A stretch of 64,000 nucleotides of DNA from Thermoproteota archaeon (GTDB taxonomy: Archaea > Thermoproteota > Thermoprotei_A > EX4484-217-1): assembly GCA_029258915.1 (NCBI GenBank), contig JAPDJU010000005.1, forward strand, positions 265,797-329,796, written 5' to 3'. Under the pieces are notes generated by a model that saw only the letters and a list, made by a program, of their open reading frames with translations, was not told where the DNA came from and did not search any database. A program made the translations under genes and the position numbers. This document shows positions 28,570-33,626 of this stretch, piece by piece (positions within the stretch are counted from its first letter, which is position 1; the number at the start of each line of letters is the position of its first letter).

Positions 28570-31500
28570 TTATTTCTCACAAAGATTTTTAAGGATAAAG
28601 GTTCCCGTAGGGTATGTTACACCAGATTTCTTAGCTCTAACTATGATACTACATGTTTCTCTGTAAAATTCATTTAAAACTTTCGTTATATCTTCTTTAC
28701 CTAGTTCTACTTGATCTATTACTTCTTGCAATTTTCTAGTTCTTTCCTCACTTATTAGTTCACTAAAGTTTTCAATTAGGTATTTAAATACCCGTTTTCC
28801 TCTCTTTGTTGCCACCAGTTTTCCTCTACTTACTTCAACTATGTATCCTCTTTTTCTAAGAATATTTAGTATTTTAGCGTATGTTGATGGTCTACCTATT
28901 TTTCTTGCTTTCATCTCCTCTACGACTTCACCATAGGTATATAGTGGATATTCAGGTATTGTTCTTACATGTATTTCTTCTATCTCATATTCTCCACTAC
29001 CTATTTTTCTTGCTTCTTCCAAAACCAGTGGTTTCGTTAGTTTAAAGAATCCCTGTTCCACTATTTCCGTTGTGAACGTAAATTCCTTTGTAAAATCTTC
29101 GAATCTTAAAGTAAAAGTTTTCTTTATGACCTTAGCTGGCATCATTTGGCTTATTATAAATCTTCTAAATACTATGTCATATAACCTGTAATCTTCAGGT
29201 CTCAAGGGAACAGCTAATCTAAGAATACCTGCTGCTCTCAAAGACCTAATTTGCCTTGAATCAAGAGGTCTTGTTGGTCTTATACATTCATGTGCCCCCG
29301 GTTTTTCCCATTTTCTAGCTTTAAAATATTTTTCTCCGTACACTCTTATAATGTAGTCTTTGGCTAAACCTATACCTAAAGTACTAACGGTTGTACTGTC
29401 TGTTCTATGATATGTTATTAATCCTGCTTCGAAGAGTCTTTGAGCAGAATTCATAATTTTAGGTGCTGATAGGCCTAAAATTCTGGAGCCTTCAGCAAGC
29501 ATCGTATCGGTAGTGTGTGGTGGCGGCGGGTTAACTTCTACTATTTCTTCTCTAACATTTTCTACTATTATTTTCCCATGTTCACGTATTTTTTCAGCTA
29601 AACCTTTTGGAGCTTTAAATGTTAATTTTAGGTTTATGTCTTTAAGCTTAATAGTTATGAGTTCTGCCTTTTTCCTGTTTTTCAACGTTCTATCGACAAT
29701 CCATCCTAGTACTGGTGTTTGCACTCTTCCAGCTGAAAGCCAATGCATGTTAAATTCTTTCCATAATATAGGGCTTAGGCTAAACCCTATCCATCTATCT
29801 TCAATTCTCCTAACAATTTGAGCTTTAACCATGTTATGGTCTATTGATGATAGACTTTTTAGCGCTTCAATTAATCCTCTCCTTGTCACTTCATGGAATC
29901 TTATGCGCCAAATGTTTCTATTGAGCGGTTTTAAAAGTAGTATTACATCCCACGCTATTTTTTCTCCTTCACTATCAGGATCGGTGCCTACAAGGATTTC
30001 ATCTACTTGAGAAGCAAGCTGCCTTAAAGCCTTAATTACAGGTTTGCTCTCAACTAAAACTTTACCTCCACAATATGGGCATGCGGTTTCTTCTTCAGGA
30101 ACATCTCTTCCACATCTTATACATCTTTTAATAGGTTTGTAAATAGGTTGAAAAACACCGTTTGTAACATTTACTCCGAAAAGTCCTTTGTCACTTACAA
30201 GGTCTAAGATGTGGCCTCCTGTAGCTGTTATTATCATTAATCTGTCTTCAGTCATTACCTCAAATGTTTGAAGGGTTCCAATGGTTTTCCTTGTGGGTCT
30301 TCCAAAAAGCCTAGCTATGGTTCTGGCCTTATTAGGTGACTCTACAATAAAGAGTGTTGTCTTCATTAGTTCTCTTTCTTTAGTTTTAAGCTTTCCTTCT
30401 AAGGCTAGTCTAACTTTTCTTCTATCTTCATCTACTTCCTTCATTAGCTTATCTATATTTACTTCATCGTAATGTTTGAATTCCACGGTTTCAAGAAGCC
30501 ATTTAAGATTTCTTATAAGCGCGTTAAACGCTTTTATTTCATCAATAACTAATACGCTTACTCCTTTAGTTATACCGCCAACATATAATCTGCTTGTTCT
30601 ACCGCTTGCTTGTATGTAAGCTGTGGCATCAGGTATTATGAAGAAGTATTCTCCGGCTTTTTCTCCAAACGTTATTGTTCGGCTTCTTCTAAGTCTTTCT
30701 TTAACCTCTTCGTCTTTTAACACCTCGTTAAGGAAGTTAAGCGCGTCTTCGGCAACCTTTCTTACAAATTCAGGAAAACCGGTGAGTGATCTCCCTGTTT
30801 TCAAAGCTTCTCTTACGGCTTCTAATGTATCTCTAGTTGCTAATCTTACCTTTATTAGACCTCCTAAGACTCTATCAAATTCGTAAGGATATTTTTCGTA
30901 AATAGCGTCTCTAATTTCATTAAGCAGAATTAACCATCTACTTGGATGAAATTCTTCAAAGCTTATTCTAAGCCTAAATTTAGGTACTCCTGTAAAAACA
31001 GCATATCTTACCCTTTCAGGTAAATCTATTCCTCTAGTAAGTGGGCTACGGTACGAAGCTATACCTACTAAAACATCAACATCCCCTGCAATAAATTTCT
31101 CGAAAAGTCTTCTTCTTGTCCCAAGATATGCTTCAGCATTAATACCGTTTTTCTTCAATGTATCTGTTATTTTCTTTACATACTCTGCTCCTTTATCCAT
31201 AGGTACGAAAACTAGACCGCCTGTACCTAGTTTCTTAACAACATTAACTATTGTTTTCTCGAAAAGCTCCTTTGGGGGCTTAATATACATGTCGACTATA
31301 TTTCTCCCTACTTCAATTTTGCCTCCAACAGTGAAGCCGAAGAGTGCATTAAGTATCTTTACTCTTTTTGTTCTTCTAGCTGTTTGTGTTGCTCCACTGA
31401 CTATTACTTGACCTTTAACTTTAAGTCTGACACTAGTTTTTAACTTAGCTGCTTCACTTATTAGTTGTCTTGCTCTTTCAGGGTCTTCTCTTGCAAGCTT

Positions 31501-32082
31501 CCTAGCTTCACTTTCCATTTTCTGAGCTTTCTCTATGAGAGCTATTTCTTCTGGAGTAACGTTTAACATTTTAAGTACTATGTCAACGCTCTTACTTTTT
31601 CTGAGAAAACTGTCAACATCGTCTATAAAGGCGATGTTTATTGGTTGCTGTAGCTCCGTTCTCTTCATTAAGCTTATAGGTGTTGTAACAATTATCGAAG
31701 CATCAACAGTGTTTTCTAGTTCTAAACGTTTTTGCTTATTAGTAAGTAAGCTATGATACGCTGAAACAAGAACTCCGTCGAATCCAAGTTTGGATCTTAG
31801 CTCTAAAAGTTTTTGATGAACCTGATGCGCTAAAAGGCTTGTCGGAAGCATTATAAGCGTTCTTTTACCCTTACTGGCAGCATATAAGCTTAAAATCATT
31901 TGCATTGTTGTTTTACCGCTACCTGTAGGTGCCACCATGGCAAAGCTTTCTTTATTAAGAAATCTTCTAGCCCATAGTCTCTGCAATCCCCACATTTTAG
32001 AACCTACAGCTCTAACAAACAATTCATCTATTTTCTTAACTTCTCTCTCTATTTCCCATATCCTATTTAGTTCACCATACAT
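28570..32082 (-). CDS. rgy: Reverse gyrase (helicase-like domain fused to a topoisomerase IA domain). The annotated ATG lies downstream of the N-terminal zinc finger; see the finding at 32083-32235.
   Basis: Helicase motif I (AMVAPTGSGKTT), then DEAD-like motifs, then the topoisomerase IA domain with a CxxC...CxxC ribbon (CIRCGRDV..CPYCGG) and catalytic Tyr region. The length (1170 aa) fits. Confidence 0.95.
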   Translation of the reverse strand: MYGELNRIWEIEREVKKIDELFVRAVGSKMWGLQRLWARRFLNKESFAMVAPTGSGKTTMQMILSLYAASKGKRTLIMLPTSLLAHQVHQKLLELRSKLGFDGVLVSAYHSLLTNKQKRLELENTVDASIIVTTPISLMKRTELQQPINIAFIDDVDSFLRKSKSVDIVLKMLNVTPEEIALIEKAQKMESEARKLAREDPERARQLISEAAKLKTSVRLKVKGQVIVSGATQTARRTKRVKILNALFGFTVGGKIEVGRNIVDMYIKPPKELFEKTIVNVVKKLGTGGLVFVPMDKGAEYVKKITDTLKKNGINAEAYLGTRRRLFEKFIAGDVDVLVGIASYRSPLTRGIDLPERVRYAVFTGVPKFRLRISFEEFHPSRWLILLNEIRDAIYEKYPYEFDRVLGGLIKVRLATRDTLEAVREALKTGRSLTGFPEFVRKVAEDALNFLNEVLKDEEVKERLRRSRTITFGEKAGEYFFIIPDATAYIQASGRTSRLYVGGITKGVSVLVIDEIKAFNALIRNLKWLLETVEFKHYDEVNIDKLMKEVDEDRRKVRLALEGKLKTKERELMKTTLFIVESPNKARTIARLFGRPTRKTIGTLQTFEVMTEDRLMIITATGGHILDLVSDKGLFGVNVTNGVFQPIYKPIKRCIRCGRDVPEEETACPYCGGKVLVESKPVIKALRQLASQVDEILVGTDPDSEGEKIAWDVILLLKPLNRNIWRIRFHEVTRRGLIEALKSLSSIDHNMVKAQIVRRIEDRWIGFSLSPILWKEFNMHWLSAGRVQTPVLGWIVDRTLKNRKKAELITIKLKDINLKLTFKAPKGLAEKIREHGKIIVENVREEIVEVNPPPPHTTDTMLAEGSRILGLSAPKIMNSAQRLFEAGLITYHRTDSTTVSTLGIGLAKDYIIRVYGEKYFKARKWEKPGAHECIRPTRPLDSRQIRSLRAAGILRLAVPLRPEDYRLYDIVFRRFIISQMMPAKVIKKTFTLRFEDFTKEFTFTTEIVEQGFFKLTKPLVLEEARKIGSGEYEIEEIHVRTIPEYPLYTYGEVVEEMKARKIGRPSTYAKILNILRKRGYIVEVSRGKLVATKRGKRVFKYLIENFSELISEERTRKLQEVIDQVELGKEDITKVLNEFYRETCSIIVRAKKSGVTYPTGTFILKNLCEK

Positions 32083-32585
32083 TTTGAGAACTTTGTCTTC
32101 TACATGAGGTAAACATTTTTCACATGGTAAGCCTAATTCAAGCCTCTCAGAAGAAATAGGCCCACCACAATTAGGGCAAAGCTCCTTAAAGATTGCCGTT
32201 AATACCAGTACACTTCACCTCCACCTATTCATTTTATTTAAATTAGCATTAGGTCGCATCATAGGTGGAGGTTTCGCGCTCCATATAAAACTTATGACAC
32301 TTGCATCAGTTTTAAGTTTAATAGGGAACACTTTCTTTGCAATACGGTTTAATGCAAGCTCTGATATAAACGTACATATAGGGAAAACTTCTTTTAGAAT
32401 AATCAGTTTTCTCTTAAATAACTTATGTTTCACCTTAACTGTTTTACTAAGTTTCATGTCTTACCACTAACCTATAATCTATCAATGAATTCATCTCGTA
32501 GCTTAACTTTAGCTGATCCTGGTATTTTTCGAAATTAATTTCTTTACCCCAATTACCTTAGCTTTAAGGAGCATATTTAAATGGT

Positions 32586-33626
32586 TTACGGTAGAGCAAT
32601 TGCAGGTATTGAAAGTTTTTTCTTAATCTCTCTAGCTAATATATATGCTGATCCTTCTCTCGAAGCATCAGTAATTACAATCTTAGGCTTAGACTTTTCT
32701 ACATATTCTAGCAGCTGTTCGAAATCTGCATGGTCACTTAATGCAACTAAATATGTTTTTTCATTAATTTGTCTTAACGGCTCGGAAAACTCCCAGCCAG
32801 ATAATACAATGTTTGTCACAGACTGTTTACTATAAATTCTAGCAGTATTTAAATGTGCAAAAAATACATACCATCCTGTCTTGACGATTTCCTCAGCTTC
32901 AAAAGACTTATAATAAAATACCTCTTTAACTCGTAATCCATGCTTCATAGCTGCTTTCGTTACTTTATACACTCTTCTAGGTACTACAAACGGTGCATCT
33001 ATGCCTCGGGATCTTAGAATTTCCATGGCTTCTTGTATCTTTCCATGATAGCCGAAGATATGAACAGGTCCTTTAGCTAAACGGGTCTTAACAAGGTCTA
33101 CAAATAAATCTTCTACCTCATATTTAAAAGGTCTTACATGGTTAGGATTGCCGTAAGTAGCTTCTATAACTAAAAGATCAGCTCCAAGAATAGGCGTTGA
33201 AGGTAATTTAAAATCCCCAGTGTAAACTAATCTATCATCTTCTTCATCAATAACTAAAACTTGAGCAGCCCCAATAATGTGCTTGGCTTTATGCAATGAA
33301 ATTTTAGCATCTTTTATTTTTATTTCTTTATCATAGTTTAGGATTAAAGTTTTATTTTCCGGTATTTCATAACCTAAAGCCGTTAATATATCATATGTTG
33401 CTTCAGTCATGCCTATAAAGGGTGTTTTCTTAATGCTTTCCCTAAGGCCGTATATGTGGTCATGATGCGCGTGTGTTACTATGCGTAAAATAGCATTATC
33501 GTCATGTCCATCACATGCTATAAAGTTTTTAAAAACTACAGCCGAATTTTCCGTTATCTTAGCTTTCCTAAGCAGCCTATTGATGGTAGCGTCAAGCGTT
33601 AAGGACAAGTAACTGCTTGCCTCCAA
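32586..33626 (-). CDS. Metallo-beta-lactamase-fold, beta-CASP-type hydrolase (small RNase J / aCPSF-like).
   Basis: THAHHDH motif, then beta-CASP-like motifs (..VIEATYG.., ..SDHAD..). Confidence 0.7.
   Translation of the reverse strand: MEASSYLSLTLDATINRLLRKAKITENSAVVFKNFIACDGHDDNAILRIVTHAHHDHIYGLRESIKKTPFIGMTEATYDILTALGYEIPENKTLILNYDKEIKIKDAKISLHKAKHIIGAAQVLVIDEEDDRLVYTGDFKLPSTPILGADLLVIEATYGNPNHVRPFKYEVEDLFVDLVKTRLAKGPVHIFGYHGKIQEAMEILRSRGIDAPFVVPRRVYKVTKAAMKHGLRVKEVFYYKSFEAEEIVKTGWYVFFAHLNTARIYSKQSVTNIVLSGWEFSEPLRQINEKTYLVALSDHADFEQLLEYVEKSKPKIVITDASREGSAYILAREIKKKLSIPAIALP

Follow-up and report, generated by a model that had tools for sequence, protein, structure and literature searches.

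Where does translation of a reverse gyrase begin when its N-terminal zinc finger is encoded ahead of the first canonical start codon? The question arises in the window, the 64-kb stretch of DNA analyzed here, and it concerns the one protein that is specific to hyperthermophiles. An earlier reading of the letters alone (the sequence-only reading) had placed the zinc finger of a minus-strand reverse gyrase upstream of the first ATG (32082) and behind an in-frame TGA (32217-32215), and had noted that ATG, GTG, and TTG are all absent in frame between this TGA and the finger. Both observations were borne out when the strand was re-read, and the absence extends as far as ATG 32082. From ATG 32232-30 the frame runs AAT AGG TGG AGG, TGA 32217-15, and then AGT GTA CTG GTA, which is followed by TTA ACG GCA ATC TTT AAG GAG CTT TGC CCT AAT TGT GGT GGG. 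This one frame is common to an automatically called ORF of 1170 amino acids (28570-32082, minus strand, starting at ATG 32082), an ORF of 80 amino acids (32215-32457), and the stretch in between. Three explanations had been offered: a TGA produced by faulty sequencing or assembly, translation from a non-canonical codon, and a real N-terminal lesion. The second fits best. In the reading that we favor, to which we assign a probability of roughly one-half, the reverse gyrase is intact, its canonical start was lost in the ancestor of its clade, and a Shine-Dalgarno (SD) sequence would direct initiation to a CUG codon, coupled to translation of the ORF upstream.

The gene encodes a complete reverse gyrase

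Read from 32214, the frame gave a Pfam match to zf_Rg (PF17915; E 3.4e-17, score 62 bits, cut-off 25.5) at 32092-32199 on the minus strand, which identifies the stretch upstream of ATG 32082 as a genuine reverse-gyrase zinc finger. Downstream of it, a single polypeptide matches DEAD, ResIII, Toprim, and Topoisom_bac (topoisomerase IA), and the translation contains the motifs APTGSGKT, IDDVD, and ITYHRTDS together with a second zinc ribbon. The last Cys of the finger lies about 60 residues before helicase motif I (APTGSGKT), in agreement with the distance reported previously. Full-length matches in the PDB are the reverse gyrases of A. fulgidus (1GKU/1GL9, E 1e-207) and T. maritima (4DDT, E 8e-187), with which the protein shares the full domain set. 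It differs from known reverse gyrases in the absence of a canonical start before the finger and in a leader of ~320 nt that is specific to its clade. When the window was compared with a related lineage (L010), the body of the gene had an ω of 0.06, which is indicative of strong purifying selection. Judged by its sequence, the reverse gyrase gene is intact, functional, and under strong selection. The coding sequence that we propose spans 28570-32208 (minus strand) and would comprise 1212 codons plus the stop, starting at CTG 32208-32206.

The use of TGA as a sense codon was ruled out, as TGA ends 8 of 55 long ORFs. At the other end of the gene, the window's reverse gyrase is five codons shorter than those of L010 and L028 (28570-28584, minus strand); a change of CAA to TAA has removed the residues QEQLN. 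Exact-product look-ups with the 1170-aa ORF and with a 346-aa ORF returned no match; the gene callers behind that collection had used other starts or contig cuts.

The missing start codon is not an assembly artefact

If the TGA were a sequencing or assembly error, or the gene a pseudogene that died recently, this would account for the missing canonical start and for nothing else. An independently assembled Logan contig (SRR22064146_16644) is 100% identical to the window from 38457 to 32113, that is, across the TGA and into the finger, and the same architecture was found in ENA, JGI, and Logan contigs of other samples. The comparison covers six lineages from different metagenomes that carry an insertion in the leader, described below (the window, L010-13/16, L017, L028-31, L014, and L015); the sequences of L014 and L015 end 20 codons past the CTG. 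In the flanking genes, dS is 0.11-0.18 between the window and L010, 0.3 for L015, and 0.5 for L014, with ω values of 0.03-0.09. Counterparts of the 80-aa ORF (81%, 67%, and 66% identical, plus two closer variants) are all flanked by the same two genes, the MBL-fold gene and reverse gyrase. Wherever a relative has this ORF, gene callers began reverse gyrase at the downstream ATG, yielding a product of 1175 amino acids that lacks zf_Rg.

The identical independent assembly and the conservation of the structure in six diverged lineages contradict an error, and the intact 3.5-kb ORF with its ω of 0.06 argues equally against a pseudogene; we regard both as extremely improbable. The missing canonical start is real biology and not a sequencing error. 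The suggestion of an N-terminal lesion also fails: the TGA does not lie inside the ancestral gene and instead forms the end of an SD sequence.

Synteny at the reverse gyrase locus is clade-wide, with CofC, CofD, CysRS, the MBL-fold gene, reverse gyrase, and DUF2192. Logan contigs from three runs (L014, L015, and L009) break within the finger codons, at window equivalents 32149, 32149, and 32113, respectively, likely because k-mers in this region are shared with co-occurring related strains. One sample, Ga0190363, contains one insertion-bearing and two insertion-free lineages. A more distant contig, L006 (CAZQIO010000009.1), is labelled 'Candidatus Saccharibacteria' and encodes a reverse gyrase 55% identical to that of the window; this contig is probably mis-binned and from a hyperthermophile.

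The zinc finger codons evolve as coding sequence

The substitution pattern across lineages was used to judge whether the finger is translated. In the stretch that starts with the CTG and stops just short of Met 32082, the codon variants comprised 10 synonymous and 7 non-synonymous ones. Three of the seven represent one variable position, and the four Cys codons of the CPNC...CEKC motif (32178-76, 32169-67, 32124-22, and 32115-13, minus strand) are kept in every lineage. The LVLTAIFK stretch after the CTG shows synonymous changes only. The two codons between the TGA and the CTG have 0 synonymous and 3 non-synonymous variants (S/R/N and V/I). The 10:7 ratio in the finger region differs from the ratio of 12:61 in the upstream ORF (Fisher p = 0.0008). 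Because the finger codons evolve as coding sequence, the finger is part of the protein, as the sequence-only reading had maintained, and initiation would have to be non-canonical. Alignment with the N termini of relatives leads to the same place: Met 32082 corresponds to an internal Ile in these proteins, which indicates that the finger belongs to the protein and that translation does not really begin at the "first usable" ATG.

It might nevertheless be argued that translation begins at Met 32082, leaving the finger codons as an untranslated relic in front of a finger-less reverse gyrase. ATG 32082 is indeed the first canonical start, and gene callers choose it (1170 or 1175 amino acids). Such a relic, however, would need to retain a coding-type pattern and four Cys across lineages with dS of up to 0.5, and no SD precedes Met 32082. 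The T. maritima enzyme loses supercoiling when its zinc fingers are deleted or their Cys residues mutated, an effect mainly attributed to the N-terminal finger (PMC3553957), and the body of the present gene is under strong purifying selection. We therefore consider a truncated enzyme improbable. On the proposed start, current gene models of the clade (1170 or 1175 amino acids) would be 42 residues too short, with the finger dropped. Since these residues are cut by gene callers, domain surveys of MAGs would wrongly score the clade's reverse gyrases as finger-less.

A clade-specific insertion lies in front of the start region

Three insertion-free groups are nearest to the clade, with reverse gyrase amino acid identities of 83% (L001/L002/L018-22), 73% (L003/4/23), and 70% (L005/24/25). 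Their reverse gyrases start with ATG ~65-100 nt past the stop of the MBL-fold gene and have the N termini MITAIFRDLCPNCGG, MVLAIFKDLC, and MIPAIFKGLC. Sequence on either side of an insertion can be aligned between the window and L001, with ~335 nt in the window facing 13 nt in L001. This alignment on both flanks indicates that the extra DNA is a derived leader insertion and that the TGA lies outside the ancestral coding region. The insertion, of ~310-335 nt (32225-32536, minus strand, with a right boundary that is uncertain between 32225 and 32202), is located between native promoter-proximal sequence and the SD and is absent from all three outgroups. The position of the ancestral ATG is occupied in the clade by CTG GTA, and gap placement decides between CTG 32208 and GTA 32205: an ungapped MAFFT alignment places the outgroup ATG on GTA 32205-03, and with a one-codon gap, TAC ATG GTT TTA of L003 matches TA CTG GTA TTA of the clade. 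The loss of the canonical start appears to date to the common ancestor of the clade, a small group of uncultivated archaea that are hyperthermophilic and Desulfurococcales-like.

Upstream of the insertion, a TATA-like box (TTTAAATA, 32574-32581, minus strand) belongs to the putative native promoter region of reverse gyrase, a region that is conserved with insertion-free relatives; hardly any variation was seen in the block 32583-32539. A long-range inverted repeat, perfect over 11 bp, joins this region to the gene, with one arm, GCTCCTTAAAG, at 32572-32562 and the other, CTTTAAGGAGC, at 32191-32181 (minus strand), the latter forming reverse gyrase codons 6-10. In all insertion-bearing lineages 10 pairs are invariant and one changes from U-A to U-G. 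Inspection by hand of the insertion-free L001 revealed a weaker, 8-bp version that would fold locally around the start codon.

The bracketing of the region by this repeat would fit removal of the insertion to restore a normal start, either from the RNA (as a bulge-helix-bulge, BHB, intron or by other splicing) or from the DNA (as a mobile element or an invertible segment). In insertion-bearing lineages only, ATG 32574-72 abuts the upstream arm. The evidence against removal is broader. A strict 3-4-3 scan for BHB motifs returned six candidates, roughly as many as chance would give, and none of them yields a canonical in-frame start. No intron or ribozyme was identified with Rfam, and the GCTCCTTAAAG arm is probably upstream of the transcription start, which speaks against removal at the RNA level. 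At the DNA level, neither terminal repeats nor a target duplication was found, no second copy of the insert was present in the window or the studied loci, and no homologue was detected in protein sets or viral contigs. Inversion of the segment, worked out by hand, would create the junction ...TAC CTT AGC TTT AAG, which has no start codon, and an insertion-free contig at ~98% identity was not found. Removal of the insertion therefore seems very improbable.

Several origins and roles of the insert were considered and rejected. A mobile element (MITE or IS) is at odds with the lack of viral-contig matches and of repeats in the window or the studied loci, and with an ORF that was found at this locus alone. 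Birth by partial duplication of the reverse gyrase 5' end would leave similarity along the diagonal, which apart from one 42-nt patch is at background. This patch (32509-32469, minus strand), just 5' of the 80-codon ORF, is 76% identical to reverse gyrase coding sequence at 32042-32001 (EVKKIDELFVRAVG), with a shuffle P of ~0.003; it may be a trace of the insert's origin. A structured RNA was rejected on a bulk alifold z of -1.1 on both strands, with only one hairpin standing out and weak covariation in the full RNAalifold structure. Rfam searches found no family on 31900-32800 even at E ≤ 5, and none at the gathering score across the 64-kb window, in which no tRNA genes were found either. Opposite the insert (32294-32470 and beyond, plus strand), the window and L010 have an open frame of 106 codons, which in the other lineages is only 65-72 codons long; it is not a conserved ORF.

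A CTG codon at Shine-Dalgarno spacing is the best candidate start

The SD, GGAGGTGA, occupies 32215-32222 on the minus strand and has the in-frame TGA (32217-32215) as its final three bases; L014 has a variant with one A-to-G change, GGGGGTGA. The consensus of the start region over the six lineages is GGTGG(A/G)GGTGA A(G/A)(T/A) (G/A)TA CTG GTA TTA AC(G/A) GC(A/G) ATC TTT. None of the six has an ATG, GTG, or TTG between the TGA and the zinc finger. The CTG at 32206-32208 (minus strand), 6 nt past the SD, is the sole near-cognate codon that is invariant in all of them. A spacing of 6 nt from GGTGA is also the modal value for other genes of the window, which have GGTGA-6-ATG, GGTGA-6-GTG, and GGTGA-9-ATG; none of these other genes combines an SD with a near-cognate codon and a long upstream extension. 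CTG 32208-32206 is most likely the start, a codon identity that we infer from conservation and spacing. Initiation there would give a protein beginning MVLTAIFKELCPNCGG..., one residue longer at its N terminus than the MITAIF and MVLAIF of relatives.

Initiation at another non-standard codon (GTA 32205, or ATA in L014) or by an unconventional route, such as reinitiation without codon selection, would have some appeal. A GTA start agrees with the ungapped alignment described above and would produce a typical N terminus, 9 residues before the first Cys. However, GUA has only one base in common with AUG, and no role as an initiator is known for it; ACG (32199-97) and ATA each change from lineage to lineage; and only CTG is both near-cognate and invariant, at the SD optimum. 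We judge these routes to be improbable as well. The out-of-frame GTG at 32213-11, followed by a frameshift, was rejected as a start: it is out of frame, it is replaced by ATG in L028-31 and by GAA/GAG in L014/L015, where it is consequently no start codon, and no slippery site is present. The same GTG opens a mini-ORF of four codons directly past the SD (GTG TAC TGG TAT TAA, 32213-32199, minus strand).

Near-cognate starts that are conserved in important genes are known, as in E. coli infC, which has a conserved AUU start, and CUG starts occur in eukaryotes (PMC4705826). The present gene resembles these cases in combining a conserved near-cognate start, an important gene, and a strong initiation context, with the codon here deduced from sequence. 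Among archaeal start codons, a review names AUG, GUG, and UUG only; switches from AUG to CUG starts are very rare (2 of 61,358), and our search of the literature found no documented archaeal CUG start. A conserved finger that lacks ATG, GTG, and TTG would provide natural evidence that archaeal ribosomes use a near-cognate start, probably CUG. If so, this would be the first documented case of CUG initiation in archaea.

The upstream ORF may be kept open for its translation

The upstream ORF (32215-32457, minus strand) extends over 80 codons from ATG 32457 to TGA 32215. It has exactly this length, with no indels, in six lineages, and three indel events were seen in the ~80 nt 5' of it. Pairwise ω values are 0.7-1.6, changes are spread evenly over codon positions, and 12 synonymous variants face 61 non-synonymous ones. 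There was no Pfam match, and homologues outside this locus were not detected among 5.8 billion and 1.84 billion proteins or in viral contigs. A conserved protein was therefore ruled out. When the observed substitutions were relocated at random, the ORF stayed open in all five lineages covered with P ~0.04, which together with the lack of indels is indirect evidence that it is translated. Its own SD is weak. An ORF that is open and free of indels yet shows no protein constraint fits one whose translation, rather than product, matters; the 80 codons resemble an upstream ORF in which the frame is maintained. The sequence-only reading had regarded them as the reverse gyrase frame upstream of the TGA and probably not as a separate gene; the ORF is indeed not a conserved protein gene, as the ω near 1 indicates, but it is not a continuation of reverse gyrase.

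A rival explanation is readthrough of the UGA from ATG 32457 or ATG 32232, which would add an N-terminal extension of ~83 or 6 residues. The reading frame of reverse gyrase is in all lineages also that of the upstream ORF and of the short ATG-AAT-AGG-TGG-AGG ORF, and the 80 codons are open and indel-free, as readthrough would demand. A common frame has a 1-in-3 chance, however, and coupling would account just as well for the lack of indels. For the upstream ORF ω is ~1, the codons right after the UGA vary freely (S/R/N), and UGA is a normal stop in this genome. We know of no recoding signal for Thermoproteota. A long extension may also be harmful, since the N terminus of T. maritima reverse gyrase is fixed against the zinc finger (PMC3553957). 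Taken together, these points make readthrough unlikely.

A hairpin could link translation of the upstream ORF to the CUG start

At the 3' end of the insert, a perfect 12-bp hairpin with a 32-nt loop (32217-32272, minus strand) pairs the SD with an anti-SD-like sequence, CCUCCACCU. Its 5' arm, ACCUCCACCUAU, spans 32272-32261 and its 3' arm, AUAGGUGGAGGU, 32228-32217. The upstream ORF contains both arms, and its frame reads the 5' one as Lys-Pro-Pro-Pro-Met. Eleven of the 12 pairs never vary; the remaining one changes from U-A to U-G, and double changes are absent. Variable columns number 1 of 24 in the arms and ~10 of 32 in the loop, and the alifold z is -4.4 relative to column shuffles, none of 60 being as low. 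What is conserved here could be the SD and the Pro codons and not the pairing as such. The predicted ΔG at 37°C is -20 kcal/mol, falling to ~-2 at 90°C, and melting is predicted at ~90-100°C, values that are extrapolated from 37°C parameters.

Initiation of reverse gyrase is probably coupled to the upstream ORF, as suggested by the arrangement of stop, SD, and CTG. A long transcript would carry the upstream ORF, and ribosomes translating it would open the hairpin, perhaps with a pause on the Pro-Pro-Pro that is encoded by the anti-SD arm. Termination on the UGA within the SD would then free the SD and deliver ribosomes 6 nt from the CUG. With a hairpin of marginal predicted stability near the growth temperature, heat could add to the unmasking of the SD. 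We put forward the full scheme, in which the upstream ORF and the anti-SD:SD hairpin gate the CUG start and heat, together with ribosome transit or a pause at Pro-Pro-Pro, opens it, as a tentative and rather doubtful extension of the coupling.

Elements of this scheme have precedents. Termination-reinitiation in archaea is efficient over a range of distances between stop and start that includes 6 nt (Huber et al., 2019; PMC10666635), the distance by which the stop of the co-directional ORF precedes the proposed start here. The RNA-unfolding model of coupling has been established in bacteria (PMC12548453). As expected of coupled cistrons, the stop is within ~20 nt of the start (PMC10666635), and an SD is found in the 3' end of the upstream ORF; the SD-covering hairpin is here wholly inside that ORF. 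The locus departs from such pairs in that the downstream gene has CUG in place of AUG, GUG, or UUG in every lineage, and in that the upstream cistron is an orphan ORF free of protein constraint and not a partner subunit.

In bacteria, leader-peptide and stalling switches unmask an SD (secM-secA, ermCL-ermC), as do SD-sequestering RNA thermometers. As in the stalling switches, a ribosome on the 5' arm (Pro-Pro-Pro) could open the anti-SD:SD hairpin, and like the thermometers, the hairpin is predicted to be marginally stable near 90°C. Unlike typical bacterial leader peptides, the upstream ORF is much longer, at 80 codons. The gene itself is standard; what appears to be new is a canonical start that is consistently absent, a leader restricted to the clade with its open and unconstrained ORF, and the SD-masking hairpin, in a domain of life and on a gene for which no such translational control is described. 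The leader could set the level of reverse gyrase post-transcriptionally and, if so, would be the first example in which a leader ORF or a thermosensor controls this hallmark enzyme of hyperthermophily.

A second TATA-like box, also TTTAAATA, lies in the loop of the hairpin (32235-32242, minus strand), and its TTTAAA core is invariant. If active, it could give rise to transcripts from near 32212, downstream of the SD. Such transcripts would have neither the SD nor the upstream ORF and would count against the coupling model. Two direct repeats of 24 nt were also observed inside the upstream ORF (32321-32344 and 32378-32401; 79% identical and 57 nt apart), encoding ILKEVFPI and IAKKVFPI; they could represent an old internal duplication or a binding site.
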